Assembly: GCF_003019035.1 (NCBI RefSeq)
Contig: NZ_CP027447.1
Reading direction: 5' to 3' (one strand)
From: Escherichia coli
GTDB taxonomy: Bacteria > Pseudomonadota > Gammaproteobacteria > Enterobacterales > Enterobacteriaceae
Length of the DNA: 64,000 nucleotides
A program made the translations under genes and the position numbers. Shown here one piece after another: positions 33,961 through 57,438 of this stretch (positions are counted from its first letter, which is position 1; every line of letters starts with the position of its first letter). The notes beneath the pieces were generated by a model that was not told where the DNA came from, searched no databases, and saw nothing but the letters and a program-made list of their open reading frames with translations.

Positions 33961-34356
33961 TTATTGCATTCTGGCCAGGCCGCGCTCTGTCATTTCAGCT
34001 GCCACACCGGCAGAGACACGGAACGCCGTTCCCGGCAGCACAAATGCCACAGCCTCATCCCGCGTGGCGTGAAGTGCATCAGTATGCAGCGTCACCAGTG
34101 CCACAACCGTGACCAGATCAGCCGTATCAGTCACGGTATCCGGCTGCGCTGATACCACCTCATTTTCATGTCCGGTCAGCGCATTTTCCGGGCTGACAGA
34201 TGTGTCCTGACCAGCAGCGTCATCCGTGTCATCAAGCTCCTCTTCCAGCTCTGCCACACGGAGTGCCAGTTCTTCTTTCGTCCCCGTCAGGCTGACATCA
34301 CGGTTCAGTTGCTCACCCAGCACCTGAAGACGGGCAATCAGTTCATCTTTCGTCAT
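33961..34356 (-). CDS. FI: DNA packaging protein FI
   Basis: ORF 33961..34395; from MTKDELIARLQVLGEQLNRDVSLTG matches recalled lambda FI. Confidence 0.85.
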   Translation of the reverse strand: MTKDELIARLQVLGEQLNRDVSLTGTKEELALRVAELEEELDDTDDAAGQDTSVSPENALTGHENEVVSAQPDTVTDTADLVTVVALVTLHTDALHATRDEAVAFVLPGTAFRVSAGVAAEMTERGLARMQ

Positions 34357-34397
34357 GGACTCCTCCACAGAGAGAAAATGGCCCCGAAGGGCCATGA

Positions 34398-35423
34398 TTA
34401 CGCCAGTTGTACGGACACGAACGCATCAGGGTCAGCCAGCAGCATCAGCGGTGCTGACTGAATCATGGTGAACTCACGCGCCGGATCGCCGGTGGTCACC
34501 CAGTTTTTCGGGTAGCGGGCAGAGGCGTTAATACCTTCGCGCTGTGCGTCCGCATCCTGAATGCAGCCATAGGTGCGCAGACCGCGTGCCTGAGTGTTCC
34601 CCAGCACCATCGTGTTGTCCGGCAGGAAGTTCTTTTTGACGTCGTTTTCCACGTACTGTCCGGAATACACGACGATCGCCGTATCGCCATACATCCCCTT
34701 ATAGGACACCGCTTCGCCCAGGTCTTTTACCGCTGTCTCCAGCTCGGAATTAGAGCCGCGACGGGTATCCAGCTTCTCCTTGACGGCTTTGAAGGAACGG
34801 AACAGCGCCCAGCCTTTCGGATCAAACACGATGATATTCACCACACCGCTGGCGTTCAGCGCGTAGGCTTCGATATCGTCGGTCGGGTCATACGTGGACT
34901 TGTCACGCTTGCTCCACTCCGTACCGCCGGACTGCGTGATGTTGTTCGCCACACTGCGGCCCATATCCACTTCAACCGGATCGAAGGCTTCACCGGTCAT
35001 GGTATATTTGCCCTTAAGCACGGCAGAAACGGCCTGCATCTCTTCGACCTGAGCAATGGCCAGCTCTTCGTCTCGCATGTTCTGCAGGATGATGCGACGG
35101 CGGCGGTAAGCCGGGTCCGCCAGATTCTGTGGATCTTCATCCGGCAGGCGACGCAGGGTCATCTGCGGATTCACCTCATGCTTAGGCTTGACATATCCCG
35201 GTGTAAATTCAGAGGTGGAGCCGCCACGGGAGCGGATAACCTCACCGGAAACAATCGGCGAAACGTACAGCGCCATGTTTACCAGTCCCGGAATTTGTGA
35301 GAGATAGACTTTCTCCGTGGTGAAGGGATAGCTCTCACGGAAAAAGAGACGCAGAAACAGCGGATCAAACTTAAATTTCTTCTCATTTGCCGCCAGCAGC
35401 TGGGCGGTTGTGTACATCGACAT
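34398..35423 (-). CDS. E: Major capsid protein E
   Basis: ORF 34398..35450; from MSMYTTAQLLAANE matches recalled lambda E. Confidence 0.9.
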   Translation of the reverse strand: MSMYTTAQLLAANEKKFKFDPLFLRLFFRESYPFTTEKVYLSQIPGLVNMALYVSPIVSGEVIRSRGGSTSEFTPGYVKPKHEVNPQMTLRRLPDEDPQNLADPAYRRRRIILQNMRDEELAIAQVEEMQAVSAVLKGKYTMTGEAFDPVEVDMGRSVANNITQSGGTEWSKRDKSTYDPTDDIEAYALNASGVVNIIVFDPKGWALFRSFKAVKEKLDTRRGSNSELETAVKDLGEAVSYKGMYGDTAIVVYSGQYVENDVKKNFLPDNTMVLGNTQARGLRTYGCIQDADAQREGINASARYPKNWVTTGDPAREFTMIQSAPLMLLADPDAFVSVQLA

Positions 35424-35478
35424 AAAAAAATCCCGTAAAAAAAGCCGCACAGGCGGCCTTTAGTGATGAAGGGTAAGG

Positions 35479-35811
35479 TTAAACGATGCTGATTGCCGTT
35501 CCGGCAAACGCGGTCCGTTTTTTCGTCTCGTCGCTGGCAGCCTCCGGCCAGAGCACATCCTCATAACGGAACGTGCCGGACTTGTAGAACGTCAGCGTGG
35601 TGCTGGTCTGGTCAGCAGCAACCGTCAGAATGCCAACGGCAGCACCGTCGGTGGTGCCATCCCACACAACCAGCTTACGGGTGGAGGTGTCCAGCATCAG
35701 CGGGGTCATTGCAGGCGCTTTCGCACTCAATCCGCCGGGCGCGGTTGCGGTATGAGCCGGGTCACTGTTGCCCAGCGGCTGGTAATGGGTAAAGGTTTCT
35801 TTGCTCGTCAT
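35479..35811 (-). CDS. D: Head decoration protein D
   Basis: ORF 35479..35817; from [12 protein letters not shown] matches recalled lambda D. Confidence 0.9.
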
Positions 35812-35820
35812 AAACATCCC

Positions 35821-37120
35821 TTACACTGGTGTGTTCAGCAAATCGTTAACGGCATCAGATGCCGGGTTACCTGCAGCCAGCGGTGCCGGTGCCCCCTGCA
35901 TCAGACGATCCAGCGCAGTGTCACTGCGCGCCTGTGCACTCTGTGGTGCTGCGGCCAGAATGCGGCGGGCCGTTTCCACGGTCATACCGGGGGTTTCTGC
36001 CAGCACGCGGGCCTGTTCTTCGCGTCCGTGAGCTTCCTCACAGTTGAGGATCCCCATAATGCGGCTGTTTTCTGCCGCAACCGCAGCGGTGATCTGCGCG
36101 TTCACGTCCGGCTGCGCCGCGCTGGCGTTTTCGCCCTCCGTCGCTTGCACCACGTCAGTAACATCAGCCTGCGAAGCAGTGGCTGAAACAGTTGTTGATT
36201 GAGTCTCTTTGGTCATTCGCCCTCCTGAGAGACGGGATTTACGTGCATCCAGTGCATCACGCATAACGGTGATCGCATCGGTGCTGTTGACAAGTTCATC
36301 AGCCAGTCCGGCATCAATGGCCTCCTGACCGCTGTACACTGCAGCCTCGGTATCCAGCACAGCCTGCACGGACAGGCCGGTATATGCCGACACCTTCTGC
36401 GCAAACATCCGGCGGGTTGCGTCCATCCGGGACTGCAGTGTCTCCCGGACGTCATCCGGAAGATGGCTGTAGGGGTTGCCATCCACCTTATGGCTGCCGC
36501 TGTAAATCAGCGTGATTTCCACACCCTGTTTCTCCAGCGCAGCACCGTAATTACTGTGAGCCATCATGACGCCGATGGAGCCTGTCCGGGCGGTCTGCGT
36601 GACCAGACGCCGGGAGGCGGCACTGGCAAGCAACTGACCTGCACTGCAGTTCATGTCGTTGGCAAGCGCCCATACCGGTTTTATGTCACGCACACGGGCG
36701 ATGATGTCAGCGCAGTCAAATGCCCCCGCCACCATCCCGCCGGGCGTGTCCATATCGAGCAGAATGCCGTCCACCATCGGGTCGCTGGCAGCCTGTTGCA
36801 GACGGGCGATAATGCCGTTGTAACCGGTCATCCCCGAATACGGCTGCAGCGCTCGCGTCCGACTAACCAGCGTGCCGGACACCGGCAGCACGGCGATGCC
36901 GTTCATGACCTGATAACTGCGGGCCTGTCGTGGTCCGTCATCATCAACGGATAACGCCAGCGCCGCGGGTGCCTCTCCGGCAGTCAGGCTGTCGCCGGAT
37001 ACCGCATCCGTCAGGCGGCTGATCCCAAGCTGGCCTGCAAGCGCACAAAAGAAAACCCGCGCATAGGCGGGTTCAAGCATCAGCGGCTCATTAAAGGCCA
37101 TACTGGCAATATGCGGGAGA

Positions 37121-37140
<20 letters not shown>
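35821..37140 (-). CDS. C: Head maturation protease C (ClpP/S49-like) with nested in-frame scaffold protein Nu3
   Basis: ORF track extends to 37275, but GTG at 37140 preceded by aggagaag gives VTAELRNLPHIASMAFNEP, matching the recalled lambda C start. Confidence 0.85.
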
Positions 37141-40821
<3,681 letters not shown>

Positions 40822-40847
<26 letters not shown>

Positions 40848-41367
40848 TCAGCAACCCCGGTATCAGTTCATCCAGCGCGGCTGCTTTGTTCATGGCTTTG
40901 ATGATATCCCGTTTCAGGAAATCAACATGTCGGTTTTCCAGTTCCGGAAAACGCCGCTGCACCGACAGGGGAATCCCGTCGAGAATACTGGCAATTTCAC
41001 CTGCGATCCGCGACAACACGAAAGTACAGAATGCGGTTTCCACCACTTCAGCGGAGTCTCTGGCATTCTTCAGTTCCTGTGCGTCGGCCTGCGCACGCGT
41101 AAGTCGATGGCGTTCGTACTCAATAGTCCCTGGCTGGAGATCTGCCTCGCTGGCCTGCCGCAGTTCTTCAACCTCCCGGCGCAGCTTTTCGTTCTCAATT
41201 TCAGCATCCCTTTCGGCATACCATTTTATAACGGCGGCAGAGTCATAAAGCACCTCATTACCCTTGCCACCGCCTCGCAGAACGGGCATTCCCTGTTCCT
41301 GCCAGTTCTGAATGGTACGGATACTCGCACCGAAAATGTCAGCCAGCTGCTTTTTGTTGACTTCCAT
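40822..41367 (-). CDS. Nu1: Terminase small subunit Nu1
   Basis: 181 aa; matches recalled lambda Nu1. Confidence 0.9.
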
Positions 41368-41369
41368 TG

Positions 41370-41600
41370 CTCATTCCACGGACAAAAACAGAGAAAGGAA
41401 ACGACAGAGGCCAAAAAGCTCGCTTTCAGCACCTGTCGTTTCCTTTCTTTTCAGGGGGTATTTTAAATAAAAACATTAAGTTACGACGAAGAAGAACGGA
41501 AACACCTTAAACCGGAAAATTTTCATAAATAGCGAAAACCCGCGAGGTCGCCGCCCCGTAACCTGTCGGATCACCGGAAAGGACCCGTAAAGTGATAATG
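41370..41600. other. Lambda-type cos region (cosB, cosN at 41545-41556, cosQ)
   Basis: Plus strand carries aggtcgccgccc (reverse complement of the lambda 12-nt cohesive end GGGCGGCGACCT) flanked by sequence I recognise as the joined lambda left and right ends. Confidence 0.85.
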
Positions 41601-41755
41601 ATTATCATCTACATATCACAACGTGCGTGGAGGCCATCAAACCACGTCAAATAATCAATTATGACGCAGGTATCGTATTAATTGATCTGCATCAACTTAA
41701 CGTAAAAACAACTTCAGACAATACAAATCAGCGACACTGAATACGGGGCAACCTC

Positions 41756-41989
41756 ATGTCAACGAAGAACAGAACCCGCAGAACAACAACCCGCAACATC
41801 CGCTTTCCTAACCAAATGATTGAACAAATTAACATCGCTCTTGAGCAAAAAGGGTCCGGGAATTTCTCAGCCTGGGTCATTGAAGCCTGCCGCCGGAGAC
41901 TGTGCTCAGAAAAAAGAGTTTCTTCTGAAGCAAACAAAGAAAAGAGTGACATTACTGAATTGCTCAGAAAACAGGTCAGACCAGATTGA
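41756..41989 (+). CDS. Hypothetical ribbon-helix-helix (Arc/CopG-like) protein in the lambda right-end region
   Basis: 77 aa; TRNIRFPNQMIEQINIALEQKGSGNFSAWVIEACRRRL fits the RHH beta-strand/helix pattern. Confidence 0.5.
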   Translation: MSTKNRTRRTTTRNIRFPNQMIEQINIALEQKGSGNFSAWVIEACRRRLCSEKRVSSEANKEKSDITELLRKQVRPD

Positions 41990-42046
41990 AGCAATTTAGA
42001 TAATCGTGCAGACTACGCCCCCTCATATCACATGGAAGGTTTATCT

Positions 42047-42457
42047 ATGGATCAGGTAGTCATTTTTAAACAAATATTTGATAAAGTTCGAAACGATTTA
42101 AACTATCAATGGTTTTATTCTGAGCTAAAACGTCACAATGTCTCACATTACATTTACTATTTAGCCACAGAGAATGTTCATATTGTATTAAAAAATGATA
42201 ATACAGTGTTATTAAAGGGCCTAAAAAACATTGTGTCTGTCAAATTTTCAAAGGATAGGCATCTTATAGAAACGACCTCTAATAAGCTGAAATCCAGAGA
42301 GATCACATTTCAGGAATACAGAAGAAACCTTGCTAAAGCAGGAGTTTTTCGGTGGGTTACAAATATCCACGAACAAAAAAGATATTACTATACCTTTGAT
42401 AATTCATTACTATTTACTGAAAGCATCCAGAAAACTACACAGATCTTACCACGCTAA
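42047..42457 (+). CDS. ydfO: Prophage protein YdfO (DUF1398 family)
   Basis: ORF 42032..42457; from [27 protein letters not shown] matches recalled YdfO (136 aa). Confidence 0.7.
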
Positions 42458-42608
42458 ACCATAACGTCCGGCTTCTCTCACTCCTGAGCCGGACTGCATT
42501 GGTTTAATAAAAACCATCAACAATTGTGATTTAGATATTCGGAACCATTCAAATATAACAAAACCCCGTAAAAACGAGGTTTATGGATAAATTTTATTAT
42601 TGAATACA

Positions 42609-42782
42609 TCAGATTAAATTAATCTTGACATCATAGCTTTCAAGACCCGTCATTTTTTCCCGTGCGGTAAACTGAATACTGGTAACTTCTTTCCCGGTCT
42701 TTTTCTTAAGTTCAATAATTTTTTTTGTTATATATTCAGAAATATCTGCTTCTGCTTTTGTTTTTAAGTTTTCAATATTCAT
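42609..42782 (-). CDS. gnsB: GnsB-like small protein (Gns family)
   Basis: Hand-translated 57 aa: MNIENLKTKAEADISEYITKKIIELKKKTGKEVTSIQFTAREKMTGLESYDVKINLI; below the ORF-track cut-off. Confidence 0.7.
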   Translation of the reverse strand: MNIENLKTKAEADISEYITKKIIELKKKTGKEVTSIQFTAREKMTGLESYDVKINLI

Positions 42783-42953
42783 CATTTCCTCTTTTAGTCT
42801 GTTATGACTTTCCAGTTACACAGTAAGTCGATTATATGGTGCAAACGTGTAAAAGATAAGATGAAACATCGCAATAATCAACATACGATAGTCTAAATTT
42901 TACACAAACAGACAAAGAGAATTTTCCTGAATTATCAATGCAATAGCATCAAA

Positions 42954-43184
42954 TCAACTCAAGAGACTTATTGCTGCTTCCAGAATTTCTTCTGAAGTAA
43001 CATGTCGATCCGCGGCTACATAAATGACTTTATGATCTCCGGTCAGAGATGGAAACCCTGCGGCCATTACAGTAAGGTGTGTTTTTTCGCCATTTGGATA
43101 TTCACGCATGATGGTGTTAACTCCAGTCATCGCTGGCACTACCACTGCTGGTTCAGAGTTAAAAAAAACTATGATTTTTTTCAT
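42954..43184 (-). CDS. Hypothetical protein (ynfN-like position between gnsB and cspI)
   Basis: ORF 42954..43226; probable start MKKIIVFFNSEPAVVVPAMTG...; 76 aa; no recognisable motif. Confidence 0.4.
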   Translation of the reverse strand: MKKIIVFFNSEPAVVVPAMTGVNTIMREYPNGEKTHLTVMAAGFPSLTGDHKVIYVAADRHVTSEEILEAAISLLS

Positions 43185-43455
43185 GATGTTACCGTAGTAT
43201 GTGAGTATCCATCGAATAGACACCAAGCAAAAAAGCTCCCGAAGGAGCCTTCATTTTCACTTTTTTAAATCCAACGACAGACGGCTGGCATTTAAGTATT
43301 GTGAAATATTATCAAATGTAATCATCATTGATTTACAAAAGATACATTTTGCCCCGAAAGGATTCATGTCAGAAACATCAAAAGATGATGTTCTATACTG
43401 GGAACCATGACAACACGGGCATCTAAAGTGAATATGGTTTGTAATATTGTCTACC

Positions 43456-43668
43456 TCAAAGCGCCACTACATGAACAGCGGCAGGACCTTTAGGTCCGTT
43501 CTCAATACCAAATTCAACTTCCTGATTCTCAGTTAATGTTTTGAAATCGTTGCTCTGAATTGCTGAGAAATGGACAAACACATCTTTGCTGCCATCTTTC
43601 GGCGTGATGAAACCAAAACCTTTTTCAGGGTTAAACCATTTCACTAAACCAGTCATTTTGTTAGACAT
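43456..43668 (-). CDS. cspI: Cold shock protein CspI
   Basis: 70 aa CspA-family protein with RNP motifs KGFGFI and VFVHF; matches recalled CspI. Confidence 0.85.
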
Positions 43669-44030
43669 AATTATTACCTTTTGAAGAAATTAGCCCTTGG
43701 GCAGAATGGTCCGAAAAAAAATATCAGAGAGAAAAACCAACAAGGAAATCTCAAGAGGTACAAATAATAAAATTATAACAATGACTGCTTCAGATAAATT
43801 TGTAACAAACCAGAACACCATTAACGCATGATTAACCACCCATAGCAAGGATTACTTTTGTAAAGAAAAACACAGCAATGAAAGAATAGCTTTATTTATT
43901 AATAAAACGTGTCATTCTGATTAAGACCTTTTATCTTACCCTTAAGATTTCAGGAATTTTGGCTCATGGAAGAGTCCTTTTTATTTAAATTTTACATTCC
44001 GCGATGTAAATGTTCCGATTTAATATTACC

Positions 44031-45054
<1,024 letters not shown>

Positions 45055-45058
<4 letters not shown>

Positions 45059-45366
45059 AGATATTTATGATGAGGACGCTCGTGCTTATTGGCAGGATTT
45101 TCAATCTTAAAGGAGTACTGATGCTGCAGATAAGACTCAACTTTTTCTGACAATTTTTCTGCTACTTCCAGGAAGACTTGCCGGACGCTCCTTCTGGCTG
45201 CTGCCTCATAAAACTCCAGCGCAGCTCCTTCAACACGGTCCATGGCGACATCCAGGTCAAAAATTTCACCGTCAAAGCGTTCTTTGTCCTGTAAGGCTAC
45301 AGTTACCGTAACTTTATTCTCAAAATTACGGACTCCTTTCACAACCAGTTCATAGTCTTGAGTCAT
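45055..45366 (-). CDS. ydfR: Prophage protein YdfR (DUF1327)
   Basis: 103 aa; matches recalled YdfR; sits between holin and endolysin genes. Confidence 0.8.
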
Positions 45367-45370
45367 TGGA

Positions 45371-45586
45371 TTACTCTCCTCTCGCAGCCTTACGCCTGTC
45401 TTCTTTAATCTTGAAATAAAGATTTGTCAGATACGTCAGCAGGCCAAAAACCAGGCTACCCAGCACACCGATTGCAGCCCACTGTGACGGAGTTACTTTA
45501 TCGAGTAACTGCAATGCCCAGAAACCAGCATTACCCGCCGATGTGCCATAGGCAACACCTGTTGTTAACTTATCCATTGATTTCAT
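45371..45586 (-). CDS. essQ: Pinholin (S21-like class II holin) EssQ
   Basis: ORF 45371..45661; from [28 protein letters not shown] the 71 aa protein resembles the phage 21 pinholin. Confidence 0.8.
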
Positions 45587-45805
45587 ATCCTCACCCCGAT
45601 GTACACGGATGGTGCAATATGTTTGAAAAGATCGGAGTCTACGGGGTAGTTTTGACAGCACACGTTGTTCTCAACGGCGCTAAAAAAACATACACATTAA
45701 AAATGCGGGTAATTATTTTGAAAGAAAGTCATATATAAAATAATAATACGAGAAATGTTTTCATATTTAGTGTACTGTATACGGCCATTTATACAGGAAA
45801 AGCCT

Positions 45806-45976
45806 ATGTCAGAACGTAAAAACTCAAAATCACGCCGTAATTATCTCGTTAAATGTTCCTGCCCAAACTGCACCCAAGAGTCAGAACACAGTTTTTCAAG
45901 AGTACAAAAAGGTGCCCTTTTGATCTGCCCTCATTGCAACAAAGTATTCCAGACAAATCTTAAAGCTGTAGCCTGA
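45806..45976 (+). CDS. Hypothetical zinc-ribbon small protein
   Basis: ORF 45755..45976; probable start MSERKNSKSRRNYLVKCSCPNCTQESEHSFSRVQKGALLICPHCNKVF; CxCxxC...CxxC motif. Confidence 0.45.
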   Translation: MSERKNSKSRRNYLVKCSCPNCTQESEHSFSRVQKGALLICPHCNKVFQTNLKAVA

Positions 45977-46025
45977 TTGATTTTATTAGTAACAAGTATT
46001 TTTTATATTTTAATAATATATTTAA

Positions 46026-46052
46026 AGCAGATAATAAAAAACCCGCCTGAGC
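46026..46052 (-). terminator. Rho-independent terminator downstream of cspB
   Basis: Minus strand aacccgctcaggcgggtt hairpin followed by a T-run. Confidence 0.5.
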
Positions 46053-46339
46053 GGGTTTGAGATTGTGGTGCTTTTTGTGGGAGTCATCCACTTACGCACT
46101 TTGTTTTGCCATGCCAGCAGTTAGCTTCTGCTGTAAAACTATTCATGCAGCAAACCTGCACTTCACCACAATGGTTAGCATACTTTTCCTGATTAAGATT
46201 TTGCCAAATATGCTAGCCATTGTTTCATGTATTGGACCTCCTTACTTTTTATTAAAGAGATCCAATATTCACTACTCTGTCCGTATCTCTACTCAGGCAT
46301 CAGCCTTCTTCGTTATCGTATACAGACGAGCGATGAATT

Positions 46340-46555
46340 TTAATCAGTAATGATGACATTTGCTGCTGCAGGACCTTTAGCACCACTCTCTATAGAGAAG
46401 GTAACCTTTTGACCTTCAAATAAGGTTCGATAATTATCATTCTGAATCGCAGAAAAATGCACAAACACATCTTTACTACCATCAACAGGAGAAATAAAGC
46501 CGAAACCTTTATCAGCGTTAAACCATTTTACTAAACCAGTCATTTTATTTGACAT
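46340..46555 (-). CDS. cspB: Cold shock protein CspB
   Basis: 71 aa CspA-family protein; matches recalled CspB. Confidence 0.85.
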
Positions 46556-46855
46556 TCTACATTCCTTAACTTGAGCCTTTCGGCATAAATGGTTTGCATA
46601 ACAGAAACGACTTCGTACTTAATTGGAGAGACTCAAAGAAGGAATAAGTGAATAACACCTGAAATGAGAACTGCTTTAGTAAACTACTTCGTATATCGTC
46701 TGTTCTTCAAACCGACGCAATCATTAACGCATAGTTGAACATATGAAGCAATGTTTATTTTAGACATCCAGCCATCTTCAACCCCATCAAAAAACTATAG
46801 CTTTCTTCAGGAACGTGTGTATAGTGCGCCAAGTTATCAGTATTAAGGAATTTTT

Positions 46856-47068
46856 TTGTCCCGTAAAATGACAGGAATTGTCAAAACCTTTGACGGCAAA
46901 AGCGGCAAGGGTCTTATCACCCCATCCGATGGTCGTATCGATGTCCAGCTTCATGTTTCAGCGCTCAATCTCCGCGATGCAGAAGAAATTACCACCGGAT
47001 TACGCGTGGAATTTTGCCGGATAAATGGTCTGCGTGGCCCTTCAGCTGCCAATGTTTACCTTTCATGA
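46856..47068 (+). CDS. cspF: Cold shock-like protein CspF
   Basis: 70 aa; [27 protein letters not shown]...; the CspF/CspH type lacking the canonical RNP1 motif. Confidence 0.85.
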
Positions 47069-47362
47069 GCTATATTAAAGCTTTAATTTCAGGCCCCATC
47101 GGATCACACATGGAGAGTTTTTATGAATAACCCCGTCTGTCTTGATGACTGGTTGATTGGCTTTAAAAGCTTATGCTGTACTTTGGCCGTAATAGCTCTG
47201 CTAATAATATAATAAGCAGACTCATTGTGTTTAGGGACATTGTACTGGAAGAAAACATTTTAAACATCAGGCAAATAACCAAGTCACCAGCTAAATAATA
47301 AGTTAACAGACATGAGTCCCGGGATGAGATTCAACATTACCATTGCCCCATTTAAAGCACAA

Positions 47363-47489
47363 AACCCGCTCATCAGCGGGTTTTCTACTTTTTCTTAACG
47401 TCGGGTATACAAAGCCCATCGTTGAAAAAATTTTATCCATATTTTTTGAAAAATGCAAACATCATGTCGCCATCTTCAGCAAAAATCAT
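47363..47489 (-). promoter_or_regulatory. Candidate late promoter / qut / tR' terminator region downstream of Q
   Basis: Position analogous to lambda PR'-qut-tR'; minus-strand hairpin aaacccgctgatgagcggg with a T-run at about 47363-47392. Confidence 0.3.
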
Positions 47490-48242
47490 TTATCTCGTCA
47501 CCTTCCTCAATTGCGCTTCCGCGTATGCTTCTTCCTGCCAGCACTTTGTTACCAGTTTACCAATGACGTCCGCATACCCCTTATACCACTGATAATCGGT
47601 CAGGTCTGGTACCAGCTTCTGGACATGACGTCGTGCCAGCGTGGTCGGTAAACGACTAAACCGGTTTCCATTACAACGCCCACAAATCTTATATACCGGT
47701 ACGCCATGAAACCGGGTTCTTTTTTCATCCAGAACAATCCCTTTACCCTTACACCCTCTGCACGCTGTGCTGGCTTCGCCCTTACCATGGCAATGCTGAC
47801 ATAGTTCCTTCACCCATTCTTCCTTGATTACAGATTCCCCGCGTCTGTAGTGTTTCACCACTTCGCGCAATACATTATAAAATCCCGTACCTGAACAATG
47901 CTCACAGCGAGCCTTACTTGCCGCAGACCTGGAGTAATCAGCAAAGGCAAAACTCACGAGGTAAGGAATAATCTGTAACCGGATTTCTTCACTCAATTTG
48001 TTCAATGTCGGGTTATCCAGTGCCATCGCGTAATTTAGCAGGCCTTCAATCGCAAACTGAGGGTCCTGAACACCAACTTTTGCCAGAAATAAGGCCAACC
48101 CAAGTGGTGCTTTCGACTGCACCATCCCCTGCGCTGCCATTACATCCGTAATTGTTAAACAACCGGTGCCTGTCGCTGGAGCGTCATCGCTCAATTTTGG
48201 AGATTTTGGGGAGTAATATTTTGGTAAGGCTTCAAGGTTCAT
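47490..48242 (-). CDS. quuQ: Late gene antiterminator Q (QuuQ)
   Basis: ORF 47490..48272; from MNLEALPKYYSPKSPKLS the 250 aa protein matches recalled QuuQ; multiple CxxC zinc motifs. Confidence 0.85.
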   Translation of the reverse strand: MNLEALPKYYSPKSPKLSDDAPATGTGCLTITDVMAAQGMVQSKAPLGLALFLAKVGVQDPQFAIEGLLNYAMALDNPTLNKLSEEIRLQIIPYLVSFAFADYSRSAASKARCEHCSGTGFYNVLREVVKHYRRGESVIKEEWVKELCQHCHGKGEASTACRGCKGKGIVLDEKRTRFHGVPVYKICGRCNGNRFSRLPTTLARRHVQKLVPDLTDYQWYKGYADVIGKLVTKCWQEEAYAEAQLRKVTR

Positions 48243-51825: not shown

Positions 51826-53674
51826 AGTTAACATTACAAGATATAAGTAATGGACGCACTCCCAATTAGTCTATTTAAATCGCCACGAGTTTAACTGACA
51901 ACCCATGATCAATTATGAATTGCAACTATTTCTGTAGTCACTTTTGTGGGGACAGTCCACAAAACTGCCAACTTCCGCTTCTTGCTCTTAGCGGACATTA
52001 GCATAGGCTATTTACCATAACGCCTCATTACGCGCACCGCCCAGACTGACTCAGCGCGTTTCTGGCATATCCCCGGTAAAACAAGTAACAAACCACCCGA
52101 AAATGAACACCAGAAACGCGACTTAAGAATCTACCCTATGAATGGATATGCACTCAACCGAATCGATCTTGGTTTCAATCTTTTTTATCGGGATCAGGCT
52201 TCTTTTTAGGTAACTTCGGGGGCTTAACTTGCTGATGACTTTGCGTTCGGCGCGTAAGCCAGGGATGGTCAGCTTTAGGTTTAACATAGTATTTTGAGCG
52301 TAAATCAATACGGGCATTATCCACTCGTTCATGGACACTCTTTTCATCATCCAGTGGTATAGGCTCCGGGCCATCAACATACTTTTCCCAGCCCAGCGCT
52401 TTCCCGTCATACAGAACGTTAATTTCACCGTCAAAGTTCTCGCATACAGTAACAACCGAATGCCTAAGTCGATATCCCCGGCCCTCACTGCGTACCTGAA
52501 ACGCACTGCTTTTGTACTGGAAAGTGAGATTTTTAGACAGAACGCGCTTCGCCTGTAGGCTGAAGATATAACCCAGTTCCTCTTCAGAATGGTGCACATC
52601 AAGATGAGCATTATCAGTAGTACGAGGCGACGTAGCGAACCGGTTGTTATAGGCTTCAATAAAGGTCGGCAACCATGCATTTGCTGTTTCAATATCACTG
52701 ATATTCTGAAGCCGCATTTCTTTGACCAGCCTGTCCTGTAGTGTCTGATTGGCGCGCTCTACCCGCCCTTTTGCCTGCGGGCTGTTGGCATGGATTGGCT
52801 CGATGCCCAGTGTCTTTATCGCACGAGTGAACTGGGTCAGCTCACCTTCCCGCTCTGGGTTATTTACCCTGAATATACTGTGTCTATCAGAGTAGAGAGC
52901 GAGCGGTACGCCATGATCATTAAGGTAACCCCGGAGGGTTTCCATGTAAGCCCGGGTTGTTTCAGCAGGCACAAAACGCAACGCCATCAACGCACTGGTG
53001 GCATCATCAATGAAAACGATCAGTGTACATCTGGGGCCTCGATTTTCAAACCAGTCATGAGGTGAGCCATCAATCTGGATCAGTTCACCGTAAGATGGTC
53101 GTCGCATGCGGCGTTGATATATACGGGCAATTTTACGACGGCGTTCACGCCATAACCCCTCTTCTATCATCCACTTTCTGAGAGTTTCAACGGATAAAGA
53201 TAAACCGTGTATCTCGCGCAATTTTTCGCACGCAAACGTAGGTCCAAAATCAGCGTAACGGCCTTTGAGGAGTGAAATTACTGTTGCTCTGAATTCAGTA
53301 GAAAAGGAATTATTAGGACGCTTTCCACGTCGGTGGGAAACCAGACCAGAAGGCCCTTCATTTCTATACCGTTGCACCAGACGTTTAACCTGCCGAATAG
53401 AAATGCCAATGCGTGCCGCAGCTTGTTCCTGAATAATCTGAAGTCGGTGGAGTTCCTTATGACTCATCGTAACAGTCTCTTTGATCATGAAAAATCCCCC
53501 AGAGAATTGTCTGGGGACATTTTAGAATGGTTCAAAGGGGACATTACAGCTTGGTGTTAACAATAGCCTGCTTCTCCGTGCCTTTCGGCACGTAAGAGGC
53601 TAACCTACATGTGTCTAGCATGAAATTGGCCTCAGATTAATGTTAAGCGTCTTGCAGGACGCGTAATGTTAACT
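51826..53674. mobile_element. Insertion sequence (family uncertain, IS481/ISNCY-like); boundaries tentative
   Basis: Single 437 aa DDE transposase ORF flanked by a 12-bp perfect inverted repeat agttaacattac (51826-51837) / gtaatgttaact (53663-53674); no clear target-site duplication seen. Confidence 0.35.
52175..53488 (-). CDS. DDE transposase with N-terminal HTH and rve-type integrase core
   Basis: 437 aa; HTH near N-terminus (IGISIRQVKRLVQRY); catalytic-triad candidates in IQIDGS, YSDRHSIF and KGRVERANQTL. Confidence 0.8.
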   Translation of the reverse strand: MIKETVTMSHKELHRLQIIQEQAAARIGISIRQVKRLVQRYRNEGPSGLVSHRRGKRPNNSFSTEFRATVISLLKGRYADFGPTFACEKLREIHGLSLSVETLRKWMIEEGLWRERRRKIARIYQRRMRRPSYGELIQIDGSPHDWFENRGPRCTLIVFIDDATSALMALRFVPAETTRAYMETLRGYLNDHGVPLALYSDRHSIFRVNNPEREGELTQFTRAIKTLGIEPIHANSPQAKGRVERANQTLQDRLVKEMRLQNISDIETANAWLPTFIEAYNNRFATSPRTTDNAHLDVHHSEEELGYIFSLQAKRVLSKNLTFQYKSSAFQVRSEGRGYRLRHSVVTVCENFDGEINVLYDGKALGWEKYVDGPEPIPLDDEKSVHERVDNARIDLRSKYYVKPKADHPWLTRRTQSHQQVKPPKLPKKKPDPDKKD

Positions 53675-53822
53675 GGGGCTTTTCTCTATCTGCCGTTGGT
53701 GTCCATGCCCGAGGCAGATAGCCTCAAGCACCCGCAGTCATTCTACTTAACTAAGATTTCCCCGCAAACCGTTTTTGTCCAGCACAGTAAATATCCAACT
53801 AAACCAATGGAGTTCGCTGTAT

Positions 53823-54041
53823 TTACCGCCAGTATTCAATGCACATGACCGCCATGAACACCCCTAAAAAAAGGGCATTTATATATCCAAATATTAATAT
53901 CAAAACATCAACTTTTTCCATATACCTTGCTGTGAAGATGATGGGCATACATGATGCGAACAACCAGAACGCAACAAACAAAAACTGCAATGCGTTTTTC
54001 ATTATTCCTCCTACAATCAATGTGCAATTACATTTAAACAC
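53823..54041 (-). CDS. Hypothetical small membrane protein (two predicted TM helices)
   Basis: 72 aa ORF (likely start MKNALQFLFVAFWLFASCMPIIF...); AT-rich codon usage unlike the flanking phage genes. Confidence 0.4.
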   Translation of the reverse strand: MFKCNCTLIVGGIMKNALQFLFVAFWLFASCMPIIFTARYMEKVDVLILIFGYINALFLGVFMAVMCIEYWR

Positions 54042-54433
54042 ACCTCAATTTGGCCGGACATATAAATATCTAAACCAGAAAAAATCACTTACATAGCGTT
54101 ACAAACTCTTTAGTCTAAAGGTTCATCGTAAAACATTCCCCATACTTATCAGTCCGTTCCGCGCCAGGTAGCTCATTGCCTTATCTGGCAACCTGTAATC
54201 AGGTTTCCGCTTTTTCAGTTGGCTGGTCGTTTAACCGACATAGTTAATCCATTAATCTAGTTGCCGGATGTTGGTGGATTTTCGCGTTTTAGTTGTTCAT
54301 AAAAGTGCACAGCTTTAACCAGTTCTTCTGATGTAACTGGGACTGGTGAGGCAGTGAATAAGGCCTGAATTTGATAGTTCGGCCTGTCGTTACAATCCTC
54401 TTTTTTCGGTACATATTTCCAGTCACCAGACCA

Positions 54434-54892
54434 CTACTTCCCCTGAAAGTCCGTAACGCCTTTTTTCACGTAGCGATATCGCCATGCCACTGGTTTTGCT
54501 TGCCCCGCCGTTTCATGCCCTTCCTGATAATTAATCTCGCTCATTCATCGCCCCACTCATCACAATATGCTTCGACCGGAGTTTTTCCCGCTTCATAGTC
54601 ATCACGCTAGGATTCGACATCAGCAGCACTTCCACCGCGTAACTCACCATAGTCCATTAATAGTTCATCCCGCTCTTCAAAACTGATGTTATATTTAGCT
54701 GAACAAAAATCAGCCACTTTGTTCTTCCTCATCGTCTTTTATTTCGTGGTATGAGTAATTGCAGTAGTTAAAGAAAATTTCTTATGCTCCGTCATGAATT
54801 TCCTCAGGTGTTGCGTCATCGTCCACTTCGAATACATCCTCAAAATCTCCACCAGCTATTCCCGTTTCAATAATAATTTTGAACTTTCGCAT
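54434..54892 (-). other. Cluster of tiny overlapping ORFs (23-41 aa) in shifting frames; probably decayed gene(s)
   Basis: Hand translation gives 36, 41, 23 and 36 aa ORFs at 54782-54892, 54607-54732, 54531-54602 and 54434-54544; an alternative frame across the second gap reads protein-like DDYEAGKTPVEAYCDEWGDE; SD sequences are weak. Confidence 0.3.
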
Positions 54893-55154
54893 TTCACTAC
54901 CGCCCTTTCGGGCGGCCTCCTGATGTTCTGAGGGTGCAGAAATCCATCCGGTTAAGGATTAAATTTTATTTACAGAACTGAATTTAATTATTCAGATATA
55001 CGTATCTGTAGCCTTACGAATCTACTCACTGGATGCCTCTTTCATAAAAATAATCCAGTGGGTTTTATCGTTTTTTCCCTGTTCGTTGACAGATAACAGG
55101 TTTTCTGTCTGTCAGTGCCAGAATCTGGCTTACCGGTATTTGCGTTTCATTCCA

Positions 55155-55511
55155 TTAAAAAATCAGAACGCCGTGCGGCCTCAACACCCGAAAGGCTTCT
55201 TTAAATCTCTGTCGCGAATCATCACGCCAGGCATCTTTATTCAGCCGTCCATATTTCTTTCCCATCCAGGCGTTATCACCAACACTCTCAAGATGCGGAG
55301 GGTCTAATACAACCATCGAAAAAGATGCGTCTGCAAATGATAATGCACGAAAATCTGCGATAATGTCAGGGCTGATAATCAAGCGTCTCCCATTGCGTAA
55401 TGTGTATCCTTCTTTTCTGATATCGCTGAATATCGCCCGTTCGTCAGACTTATCGAACCAGAACATGCGGCTGCCACAGCACATATCAAGAATGGTTGCC
55501 GGTGCACTCAC
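55155..55511 (-). CDS. SAM-dependent methyltransferase-like protein (motif I and DPPH motif IV), possibly truncated
   Basis: 118 aa; ILDMCCGSR resembles SAM-binding motif I and VVLDPPH resembles the D/N-PP-Y/F/H motif IV of amino-methyltransferases; too short for a complete DNA MTase. Confidence 0.45.
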   Translation of the reverse strand: MSAPATILDMCCGSRMFWFDKSDERAIFSDIRKEGYTLRNGRRLIISPDIIADFRALSFADASFSMVVLDPPHLESVGDNAWMGKKYGRLNKDAWRDDSRQRFKEAFRVLRPHGVLIF

Positions 55512-55930
55512 TGCGCCACGTCCTGAAAATTACCCTGATAGAAAGCCAGTATGCGCTGCATAACTTCGCTCTTCCGGCACTCGCGACAGATTATGTTTAG
55601 GCGACTGTCGTAGCGACGTATTTCTCCGTCAGGTGATGACCAGATAAGGTCCGGATCAACCACAGCAGGTTTCTTCACCTTTGCCCTCGAGAGTTTTTTG
55701 CGGGCGTTTTGCCAGTCCTTACGCGCCTGTTCAGAGGGGAATAACCCGTAGCCGGAGTTGTATACATCGCCACTGGCTACCAGCTCTCTGGCAAGAACGC
55801 TCATCAGATATCTAGTCGCACCTGTTTTAGCTTCCAGTTGCCGTAACGTCTCACGGCCGCTCTGGCGCACGAGTTCCACCACCTGCCATTTAATTTTTTC
55901 CCGCTCTTCTTGTGTAAAAACTTTTGCCAC
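55508..55930 (-). CDS. Hypothetical protein (early-region, possible DNA-binding)
   Basis: 140 aa; basic; CRECR near C-terminus; stop overlaps the start of the methyltransferase-like ORF. Confidence 0.5.
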   Translation of the reverse strand: MAKVFTQEEREKIKWQVVELVRQSGRETLRQLEAKTGATRYLMSVLARELVASGDVYNSGYGLFPSEQARKDWQNARKKLSRAKVKKPAVVDPDLIWSSPDGEIRRYDSRLNIICRECRKSEVMQRILAFYQGNFQDVAQ

Positions 55931-55970
55931 AAGTCCCCCTTAAAATTACCTCATGACCTGAAATCAACAC

Positions 55971-56990
55971 TTATCCTCTGAAACCAGGCGGAATTTCTGT
56001 ATCCGGTTCAGAAATATGATTAACACAACGCTGTACAGGTGAACGTCCCAGGCGGATGACCAGTTCGTCCCATTTTTCGCGGAGCTTTGACGGGCTCATG
56101 ATGTTTTTTACCCAGAATGGATCTCGCTGAACCCGACCAAACATTTCGCAAATTTGTCTGTGGCTTCTGCCATCCAGCATCCGCATTGTGCGCACGTCAT
56201 TGGCCCAGGCAGTCCAGTTAGGCTCTTTTGGTCGCATGATCTCGCCATCATCACTGGCTGCCTGTTCGTAGAGACCCACGATCCGCCCCCAGATCCACTG
56301 CGCACACGCCAAATCCTCCCTGCTACCCCACTGGCGTTTTTTCGCACTAAACACAACCGCGTCGGAGTTCCGGGTTAAAAAATCCTGTTCAGTCGTCTGC
56401 GGGTCCGGTTGCGAAGCTTCCGGACGAAAAGTGTTTTTATTCTCTGTAGTAATCTCTGTTGTATTCTCTGTAAGATCATCAGGCCATTTTGACCCGATGA
56501 CATTGGGTCGTTTTGAACCAATGGAGCGTTTCATTTTGACCTCTTCCATCGTGTCATTTTGACCTGATGGAGCGGCGCATTTTGAACCGATGGATTCGCT
56601 CAATTTGCCACCATCTAAAAGCTCGCTCCCATAGTTGATCGTGTAGAAATTGGTCATATCGCGCTTTGATTTATTGAGCTTTTCACAACGCAAAAGCCCC
56701 AGCGTTTTCAGACTTGCAAACGCGCGCTTTAACGTTGACTCTGACCAGAATGGGAACTGTTCCAGCCATTGTTCCGTTGTGTTATAAATCCAGCGAACAC
56801 CATCACATTCCATGCCGGAGTTGGTATCTCTCAACCAGTAGTGCAGTTGTTGCAAAACAATGGCTTCGTTTAAGCCAATTTTCATTGCCAGCTGCGTGTT
56901 TATAACCAGTGGGCGTTCAGCAAAAAGAAGGCTCATAATTCCATCCAGCTTTTTGTTGGTATTGCTGTCGATACGCAAGTTTGAAAGCAA
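55971..56990 (-). CDS. Putative replication initiation protein (replisome-organiser-like)
   Basis: 339 aa ORF in the position of lambda O, downstream of the cro-like dicC; N-terminal winged-helix-like segment; start may be the internal MSLLFAERPLV. Confidence 0.45.
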   Translation of the reverse strand: MLSNLRIDSNTNKKLDGIMSLLFAERPLVINTQLAMKIGLNEAIVLQQLHYWLRDTNSGMECDGVRWIYNTTEQWLEQFPFWSESTLKRAFASLKTLGLLRCEKLNKSKRDMTNFYTINYGSELLDGGKLSESIGSKCAAPSGQNDTMEEVKMKRSIGSKRPNVIGSKWPDDLTENTTEITTENKNTFRPEASQPDPQTTEQDFLTRNSDAVVFSAKKRQWGSREDLACAQWIWGRIVGLYEQAASDDGEIMRPKEPNWTAWANDVRTMRMLDGRSHRQICEMFGRVQRDPFWVKNIMSPSKLREKWDELVIRLGRSPVQRCVNHISEPDTEIPPGFRG

Positions 56991-57438
56991 TTGCTTTTTC
57001 TATAAGTTCGTCAGTTTCACGATCCACTACGGCAGGATCAGCAAAAAGCAGTCCGGACTCCACCACATCGCCATATTCTTTGTTTAACCCGGCGATCATG
57101 CACGTGATGCTTTTTCCGTCAGTAATTTCACGATACAACCTGAAATCATTAATCCGGATAGCCTCCATAATTGCAGGCACTAGCGCCGTGAACTTTTCAC
57201 GCTTATCCCTGGTGTCGATAGCCTTCCAGCGTTCAAATATCTTCACTCGATTAACGCCAAGCGCTCGCTGATCAATCGCGCCACCTTCATATGTGACACG
57301 CTGAACATCGATGTTCGGGCGCTCTTTCAAAGCCCAGAATGCTTCAGTGATTAATATCGTCGCCTGCTCCTGTGTCATTCCTGGTCGACATATCCAGGCA
57401 TCCAGAGCCTCACGAGCCTGTTCAGGAGTGATTTTCAT
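56917..57438 (-). CDS. Hypothetical protein directly downstream of dicC
   Basis: 173 aa ORF overlapping the dicC stop and the next ORF; no motif recognised. Confidence 0.45.
   Translation of the reverse strand: MKITPEQAREALDAWICRPGMTQEQATILITEAFWALKERPNIDVQRVTYEGGAIDQRALGVNRVKIFERWKAIDTRDKREKFTALVPAIMEAIRINDFRLYREITDGKSITCMIAGLNKEYGDVVESGLLFADPAVVDRETDELIEKAIAFKLAYRQQYQQKAGWNYEPSFC

Follow-up and report, generated by a model that had tools for sequence, protein, structure and literature searches.

A row of three decayed early-region genes in a Qin-type cryptic prophage of Escherichia coli

Introduction

Among the closest described counterparts of the locus studied here is the cryptic prophage Qin (Kim) of Escherichia coli MG1655, which occupies the same site and has the same flanking dicABC, relBE, hokD, flxA and ydfW genes as the prophage in our window, the 64,000-nucleotide stretch of contig NZ_CP027447.1 that was analysed. 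Because MG1655 has deleted the segment between ydfX and ydfW, the window represents an earlier, less reduced stage of Qin. The same process, in which point mutations inactivate genes, IS elements insert and segments are deleted, wears down grounded or defective prophages in general (Ramisetty & Sudhakari 2019, PMC6379469; Wang et al. 2010, PMC3105296). The many hypothetical ORFs of Qin have been counted as possible de novo genes (review PMC6379469), whereas the small ‘hypothetical’ ORFs of the window can be shown to be fragments of older genes.

The closest working relatives of these older genes form a trio in FORC_029 and EC7518 (WP_001224672.1; WP_032295776.1/WP_000753060.1; WP_028985605.1/WP_021526748.1), with the same order, overlapping junctions and leader hairpin as the window and a nucleotide identity of ~91-93%. 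All members of this trio are open, whereas the window copies, which we call genes 1, 2 and 3, carry one, one and four disabling lesions, respectively. Parts of this decay have been recorded already. In NZ_CP026085, the DNA of which is 100% identical, PGAP lists C1467_RS25645 (‘DUF7167 family protein, internal stop’) at the coordinates of gene 1 and C1467_RS25205 (‘hypothetical protein, frameshifted; internal stop’) at those of gene 3, 54123-54544; gene 2 (54541-54717) is unannotated in the PGAP records, which hold neither the individual lesions nor their order nor the intact ancestors. The decay of genes 1 to 3 is routine, and mostly already flagged as pseudogenes in RefSeq. Here we describe the interval 54123-54892 gene by gene and find that it is very probably a row of three pseudogenes, each knocked out by its own mutations in the course of ordinary prophage decay.

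Results

Prophage context

The cluster at 54123-54892 on the minus strand consists of three adjacent decayed early-region genes (Table 1), in a stretch shared at 100% identity with several hundred E. coli chromosomes. The prophage reads, in order, exonuclease, ydfD, dicB, ydfC/B/A, dicA, dicC, ydaT-like, O-like, DUF977 and methyltransferase genes, followed by the gene 1-3 cluster, an IS, ydfW, flxA, ydfV, relBE, hokD, rem, ydfU and Q, so that the cluster has the replication, DUF977 and methyltransferase genes on one side and the hok locus on the other. Judged by its synteny with dicB/dicA/dicC, relBE and hokD and by its integration beside rspB/ynfA, the element is a cryptic lambdoid E. coli prophage of the Qin type, with the cluster in its early-right operon. 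In IAI39 the element adjoins rspB, the Qin site, and has an integrase at its edge, and the same locus of MG1655 is annotated as ‘cryptic prophage Qin’; there, the DNA from ydfX to ydfW is absent and the entire gene 1-3 cluster is gone. The Qin operon is normally repressed by DicA.

The ydaT-like, O-like and DUF977 genes upstream are still open, and the four consecutive genes downstream of them are dead. The first of these four, the methyltransferase gene, has an in-frame TAA at 55155-55157 and then a frameshift (it reads …GVLIF-stop-WNETQIPVSQ…), with a phrog_954 match (E=4.7e-73) that spans the TAA, and newer PGAP runs flag it as ‘frameshifted; internal stop’. An RNA gene beneath the small ORFs was ruled out, as an Rfam scan of 54100-54900 returned no RNA gene and its sole match, sok, lies farther downstream. 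Promoter and terminator scans gave counts at chance level.

Table 1 Positions of the genes, lesions and small open reading frames described in the text
Feature	Position	Strand	Description	Basis or relation
Methyltransferase pseudogene	55022..55511	minus	phage DNA methyltransferase, phrog_954	upstream neighbour
Gene 1 leader	54900..54921	minus	AGGAGG (54916-54921) and hairpin CCGCCC-GAAA-GGGCGG (54900-54915)	
Gene 1 pseudogene	54710..54892	minus	DUF7167/phrog_1997, 60 codons; ATG 54890-54892; normal stop TGA 54710-54712	
Gene 1 lesion	54782..54784	minus	AAA (Lys37) to TAA, codon 37	alignment
Gene 2 pseudogene	54541..54717	minus	58 codons	phrog_519 C-terminal region, WP_000753060-like
Gene 2 lesion	54607..54609	minus	TGG (Trp37) to TAG, codon 37	alignment
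Gene 2 substitution cluster	54589..54617	minus	7 substitutions in 29 bp, including the TAG	window clade against L018
Gene 3 pseudogene	54123..54544	minus	phrog_660	intact form 171 aa
Gene 3 lesion 1	54434..54436	minus	TAG at codon 37 (CCG/Pro in FORC_029)	alignment
Gene 3 lesion 2	54273..54281	minus	junction of 90-bp in-frame deletion	AATCC(G/A)CC direct repeats
Gene 3 lesion 3	54257..54259	minus	CAG (Gln) to TAG	shared with L003
Gene 3 lesion 4	54225..54226	minus	4-bp deletion, frameshift	alignment
ORF 36 aa	54782-54892	minus	gene 1 N-terminal stump	
ORF 37 aa	54739-54852	minus	spurious, alternative frame over gene 1	no PHROG match
ORF 41 aa	54607-54732	minus	gene 2 frame, ends at in-frame TAG	
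ORF 39 aa	54531-54650	minus	spurious, alternative frame over gene 2	no PHROG match
ORF 36 aa	54434-54544	minus	gene 3 N-terminal stump	
ORF 20 aa	54423-54485	minus		no family match
ORF 45 aa	54289-54426	minus	spurious, within gene 3	no PHROG match

Small open reading frames and the genes beneath them

A preliminary description of this DNA had drawn attention to a run of tiny ORFs of 23-41 aa in shifting frames on the minus strand. The run is there, with sizes of 20-45 aa: the ORF listing for the minus strand of 54289-54892 holds seven ORFs of at least 20 aa. Since the surrounding 3.5 kb contain 62 ORFs of at least 20 aa, short ORFs lie here at background density and the pattern alone is uninformative. 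What exceeds chance is instead the homology that runs across the stops. In a family scan of the unrepaired pieces, the stumps as they stand match positions 1-36 of 57 in phrog_1997 and 34-68 of 193 in phrog_660, and homology carries on in frame beyond each stop, while the PHROG scan yielded no family match for any of the alternative-frame ORFs (37, 39, 20 and 45 aa). The frame-shifting look arises because spurious alternative-frame ORFs (37, 39 and 45 aa) interleave with the rest. The small ORFs are therefore best read as N-terminal stumps of three genes together with chance ORFs in other frames. The peptide DDYEAGKTPVEAYCDEWGDE, at 54544-54603, had been taken for an alternative frame that still reads like protein; it is present, but is read in the frame of the 41-aa ORF, from which only the in-frame TAG splits it (...AADVES-stop-RDDYEAGKTPVEAYCDEWGDE-stop), and it is ‘alternative’ only with respect to the overlapping spurious 39-aa ORF. 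It is the C-terminus of gene 2 and matches the C-terminus of phrog_519.

Each window gene was conceptually repaired, and the family libraries were then scanned. With its stop read as Lys, gene 1 matched Pfam PF23768 at 51.6 bits (cut-off 24.4) over profile positions 1-60 of 60 and phrog_1997 at E=1.6e-29 over positions 1-57 of 57. Repaired gene 2 matched phrog_519 (E=1.6e-13). Gene 3 matched phrog_660 (E=5.6e-30, profile positions 34-133 of 193) in the frame that carries the TAG, with the part after the stop matching the next phrog_660 segment, and it aligned colinearly with the FORC_029 protein. Genes 2 and 3 gave no meaningful Pfam match and none of the three genes an NCBIfam match; no solved structural relative was found for the ancestral proteins, and no mention of DUF7167 was found in the literature.

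In relatives at ~90-93% identity with intact CDSs (FORC_029, EC7518, YZLc1-3, 3347558, EH031 and phage 640R1), the three genes are separate CDSs of 183 bp, 177 bp and, when the last is intact, 516 bp. The gene 1 stop overlaps the gene 2 start in these relatives as ATGGCTGA, and the gene 2 stop overlaps the gene 3 start as ATGA; the working copies are tightly packed and translationally coupled. The window retains both overlaps, of 8 nt between gene 2 and the end of gene 1 and of 4 nt between gene 2 and the start of gene 3; its gene 2 starts with GTG (54715-54717), where relatives have ATG. Each of the homologues retrieved is confined to a single one of the three genes.

Lesions of the three genes

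Gene 1 is intact in relatives as a 60-aa CDS, and codon 37 is AAA in every intact relative aligned. The TAA found there in the window is also present in the metagenome contig L018, in L020 and in the whole clade at 99% identity or more, and leaves a stump corresponding to profile positions 1-36 of 57. Because this TAA truncates the domain, gene 1 is a pseudogene of the DUF7167 family, not a member protein. Its leader is preserved: the hairpin lies 7 nt 5' of the ATG according to fold prediction, and its stem is invariant in relatives and also precedes an unrelated DUF4014 gene in EDL933.

The gene 2 family was found by tblastn in 198 phage records. Over its full length gene 2 resembles free-standing proteins of 51-64 aa, including Det7 gp16 (64 aa, Ackermannviridae) and phiKDA1 ORF26 (51 aa, Autographiviridae). 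Trp37 is invariant across all gene 2 homologues retrieved, as part of an invariant D-A-E/D-A-W motif; the window has D-V-E-S-stop at this place, and ‘DVES’ occurs in none of the homologues. A protein search also returned an intact 58-aa gene 2 protein, P0001, which is 97% identical to the window allele and is encoded by L018. The window clade differs from L018 at seven sites within 29 bp (54617, 54616, 54612, 54610, 54608, 54598 and 54589), and at all seven L018 matches every other relative. Against a background of 13 mismatches in 4807 bp between the window clade and L018, such a cluster has a Poisson probability of ~3e-12 per given 29-bp window, or ~6e-10 after correction. Either a short tract was converted from a copy that has not been sampled, or one complex mutational event produced all seven changes. 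No donor was found: the window contains no second copy at three or fewer mismatches, and all 28 patch-bearing contigs in IMG/VR are of the window type.

The 29-bp patch partly resembles an imperfect direct repeat 42 nt downstream. A template switch on this repeat was considered and not adopted, the evidence being equivocal, with three of the seven changes directed towards the repeat and two away from it. A path from Trp through Gln to the stop was rejected as well: the ‘DVESQ’ of the database proteins P0003 and P0004 is TAG in the DNA of L021 and stems from a table-15 gene call, and an exact search of viral contigs found no CAG version of gene 2.

Intact gene 3 proteins have 171 aa and a 516-bp CDS (FORC_029, WP_028985605.1; EC7518, WP_021526748.1), and lesions were called against the intact FORC_029 allele. 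Two TAGs and deletions of 90 bp and 4 bp interrupt the frame of the window copy. The first TAG and the 90-bp deletion, which takes out 30 codons, VETGAWKDAVDWVLREACCAAILGKADNPP, are common to the ~93% relatives L002, L003 and L004. Beyond the 4-bp deletion the C-terminus (...QLKKRKPDYRLPDKAMSYLARNGLISMGNVLR-stop) runs on in another frame to 54123, so that the real feature reaches farther left than the limit of 54290 set earlier. Frameshifting had been proposed as the mode of decay, and this holds for gene 3, which has a deletion and a frameshift in its stretch down to 54123; genes 1 and 2 have nonsense codons only, and within 54290-54892 the disabling changes are in-frame nonsense substitutions (TAA, TAG and TAG). 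Phage vB_EcoS-640R1 carries an 85-aa CDS in the same frame as the spurious 45-aa ORF, which is a mis-call because the phage has an A8 run there where the window has A6.

Order of loss and spread through the population

Gene 3 died first, because its TAG at codon 37 and the 90-bp deletion are also found in relatives at ~93% whose genes 1 and 2 are intact. L018 matches the window at 99.17% identity over 4807 bp, in an identical IS/flxA/relBE context, and carries the TAA of gene 1 and all gene 3 lesions; as it keeps gene 2 open beside dead genes 1 and 3, gene 2 died last. The distribution of lesions thus gives the order gene 3, gene 1, gene 2. No complete E. coli genome has the full L018 state, the best full-length match being of the window type, at 98.2%.

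Between ~495 and 526 complete-genome records have the allele at 99% identity or more, which corresponds to roughly 500 of the 5426 complete E. coli genomes. The three stops are fixed in this clade, being found in every member examined, namely three complete genomes (99.2-99.4%) and 28 IMG/VR contigs (98.9-100%). Since the lesions are reproduced across ~500 complete genomes and these 28 contigs, they are not sequencing errors. In addition, several members of the clade have acquired extra, independent frameshifts, insertions, deletions and missense changes in genes 1, 2 or 3, which means that decay is continuing.

Compared with IAI39, the early block shows 2 mismatches over 5083 bp with the IS fragment included (99.96% identity), and the late region is 98.1% identical. 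Constraint was rejected as the cause of the 100% identity across phylogroups, given that the near-identity of the 5083 bp includes the IS fragment; it looks as though a mosaic block was shared recently. The dN/dS of genes 1 and 2 together was ~0.37 on the window lineage and ~0.16 among intact relatives, a contrast that is non-significant with so few sites (Fisher p=0.25), so that sequence statistics alone are no proof of relaxed selection.

Discussion

Taken together, homology, lesions and their distribution argue for three pseudogenes lost one by one. Gene 3 was hit first, by an amber codon and by the 90-bp deletion, mediated by repeats, and later by a second amber codon and the 4-bp deletion; gene 1 was then lost through the change of AAA to TAA, and gene 2 through that of TGG to TAG within the 29-bp, seven-substitution cluster. 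A later step, in K-12, was deletion of the whole segment. Polarity after translational coupling was broken may have aided the loss. As to the cause, we infer neutral loss under relaxed selection in a silent, repressed operon, and not selected inactivation.

Selected inactivation would mean that the methyltransferase and genes 1 to 3 were harmful when expressed leakily and that knocking them out aided retention of the prophage. That four consecutive genes are dead next to three open upstream ORFs is in keeping with this, as are the small, very acidic products of genes 1 and 2 and the loss of an invariant Trp from gene 2; some phage-encoded inhibitors of host proteins are likewise small and very acidic. 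We nevertheless regard this account as unlikely, for no PADLOC, literature or structure data speak for toxicity of any of these families, gene 2 was still intact in L018 and L020 long after the death of its neighbours, and the lesions are staggered in time, as drift predicts. A related proposal, that the stop of gene 2 came in one multi-nucleotide event (a templated or error-prone repair patch) on top of a serial knock-out by selection against leaky harmful proteins, seems to us quite improbable. Were it true, one would have in the acidic DUF7167 and gene 2 proteins candidates for inhibitors of host functions, and in the locus a natural, dated record of how domestication proceeded step by step.

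The ORFs of 36-41 aa are very unlikely to encode working small proteins of the early operon, for instance as N-terminal fragments that were domesticated. The original starts and the gene 1 leader are retained, hundreds of genomes share an identical allele, two of the ORFs were entered as proteins by the depositors of phage record PV340562, and the first stop falls at codon 37 in three of three genes. However, the near-identity is not ORF-specific, extending over 5083 bp with an IS fragment, and looks like recent shared ancestry; moreover, within the clade the fragments go on acquiring frameshifts, insertions and missense changes, MG1655 does without the entire segment, and the alternative-frame ORFs have no homologues. 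The common position of the stops is best read as coincidence, because the three arose at different times. The converse idea, that the intact relatives are derived fusions of micro-ORFs, is contradicted by the full-length homologues that similarity searches place in unrelated phage families. The preliminary description had preferred decay to genuine micro-ORFs, and in this it is borne out: the 36-aa pieces match family N-termini only, and in-frame homology crosses every stop.

The same description had envisaged a single ancestral gene of ~150 aa over 54290-54892, fragmented by frameshifts, to which we give almost no credence. Gene 3 alone (54123-54544) does fit the picture of one gene, a 171-aa gene in its case, decayed by deletion and frameshift. 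However, there are three genes here, of 60, 58 and 171 codons, belonging to three PHROG families; a search for one intact homologue across the frames found none that covers more than one of them, and related prophages carry separate intact CDSs with their own starts, the very observation that the preliminary description had named as speaking against a single gene. Furthermore, genes 1 and 2 contain in-frame nonsense codons without any frameshift, and the gene 2 family is free-standing (51-64 aa) even in Ackermannviridae and Autographiviridae.

Finally, we consider amber recoding or programmed read-through, in which TAG would stand for an amino acid (Gln under translation table 15), hardly credible. 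In its favour, the database proteins P0003, P0004 and P0026 have Q at the TAG positions, ~350 bp contain three in-frame TAGs, and the intact homologue has Gln opposite the second TAG of gene 3. However, the underlying DNA is TAG and the Q comes from table-15 translation only; the other TAGs align with Trp and Pro; it is TAA that stops gene 1 and the methyltransferase; a deletion and a frameshift add to the damage in gene 3; and the E. coli host uses the standard code. The likeness to amber-recoded (table 15) phages is thus superficial, lying in the several in-frame TAGs that prompt table-15 gene calls; the window differs in having TAGs at Trp, Pro and Gln positions together with TAA stops and frameshifts, and no suppressor, since there is no tRNA gene in the window.

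The reading of the locus as three pseudogenes has some value for annotation. The pseudogene of gene 2 is missing from RefSeq records, and automated callers have deposited TAG=Gln ‘proteins’ from this locus. In PV340562 a gene stump and the spurious 39-aa ORF, the latter as a ‘hypothetical protein’, are annotated as proteins; this stump and chance ORF, like the wrong-frame 85-aa CDS of vB_EcoS-640R1, are mis-annotations. More generally, small hypothetical ORFs in grounded prophages should not be counted as newborn genes. The series that leads from gene 3 through gene 1 and gene 2 to the deletion of the segment in K-12 illustrates the stepwise reduction of a prophage.

Coincident stops of different ages in three genes

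In all three adjacent pseudogenes of the early operon of this Qin-type cryptic prophage, gene 1 (DUF7167/phrog_1997), gene 2 (phrog_519 C-terminal region) and gene 3 (phrog_660), codon 37 holds the earliest premature stop (54782-54784, 54607-54609 and 54434-54436, respectively), leaving three stumps of 36 aa. A naive post-hoc calculation gives this shared position a probability of about 1e-4. The three stop events differ in age: that of gene 3 is common to relatives of ~93% identity, that of gene 1 is shared with L018, a closely related metagenome contig, and that of gene 2 is confined to the window clade. Because of these differing ages, we read the regularity as a coincidence.

Elements flanking the dead genes

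Features surrounding the three pseudogenes
Feature	Coordinates	Strand	Remarks
Gene 1 leader	54900-54921	-	AGGAGG and hairpin CCGCCC-GAAA-GGGCGG; 7 nt from hairpin to ATG
Orphan hok leader/sok	53562-53733	-	Rfam sok (RF01794)
59-aa ORF	53823-54002	-	MKNALQFLFVAFWLFASCMPIIFTARYMEKVDVLILIFGYINALFLGVFMAVMCIEYWR; no annotation; hydrophobic
Phage DNA methyltransferase pseudogene	55022-55511	-	In-frame TAA at 55155-55157, later frameshift in A-run

The 59-aa ORF, whose ATG is preceded at 6 nt by GGAGG, was intact in 8 of the 8 relatives checked (99.4-100% identical), even in those just ~93% identical across the adjoining genes. PGAP does not call it; a metagenome gene caller does so in L018, and searches of Pfam, NCBIfam and PHROG returned zero matches. 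Possibly this ORF encodes a genuine small membrane protein and has survived among dead neighbours.

Variation in the gene 1 leader hairpin, which is given as 18 nt, is confined to the loop, the stem being invariant, and its predicted folding would give normal spacing between the Shine-Dalgarno sequence and the start codon. In O157:H7 prophages, a 45-nt leader of the gene 1 type (95.7% identical) stands ahead of an unrelated DUF4014 gene.

The hok leader, which matches the full Rfam sok model at 104 bits, is detached from its gene and still retained in the window. Colinearity with L003, a ~93% relative, ends 2 nt inside the L003 hokD start codon (junction 53562/53563), and the hokD sequence picks up again 3.27 kb away, at 50289-50033. 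The block splitting the locus carries an IS transposase, ydfW, flxA, ydfV and relBE, with a 16-nt overlap at each of its two junctions; insertion of relBE at the hokD locus has been reported before (PMC6379469, citing Ramisetty & Santhosh 2016).

Mosaic divergence of the prophage

Compared with the same Qin element in E. coli IAI39, the early region and IS (52268-57350) show 2 mismatches in 5083 bp (99.96% identity), whereas the late, lysis and structural region (34049-47740) shows 243 in 13.7 kb (98.1%). This difference suggests that the early block was recently exchanged between distant E. coli lineages.

An E. coli-type early region (~90% nucleotide identity; hits H29 and H50) also occurs in PP818812, labelled Actinobacillus phage vB_Apl-pPE4. 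One would not expect such a region in a phage of Pasteurellaceae; the record may be mislabelled as to host or contaminated.

Misleading database records

Two GenBank entries are mis-annotated at this locus. In phage vB_EcoS-640R1 (ON470612; L002 3450-3707), the 85-aa 'hypothetical protein' corresponds to gene 3 translated out of frame past an A8 tract, which is A6 in the window, and in PhiR42_1 (PV340562; L016 9309-9419 and 9551-9670) the 36-aa stump of gene 1 and a chance 39-aa alternative-frame ORF are annotated as proteins. Older RefSeq records likewise still label a 118-aa stump of the methyltransferase, which lies directly upstream of the three dead genes, as a complete 'class I SAM-dependent methyltransferase' (WP_001310834.1). 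Finally, three proteins in public collections (P0003, P0004 and P0026) carry Gln at the TAG positions of this locus (L021, window 53706-54939) because a gene caller, faced with short contigs in which several TAGs lie in frame, applied translation table 15 instead. Clusters of pseudogenes of this type can be falsely identified as amber-recoded phage.
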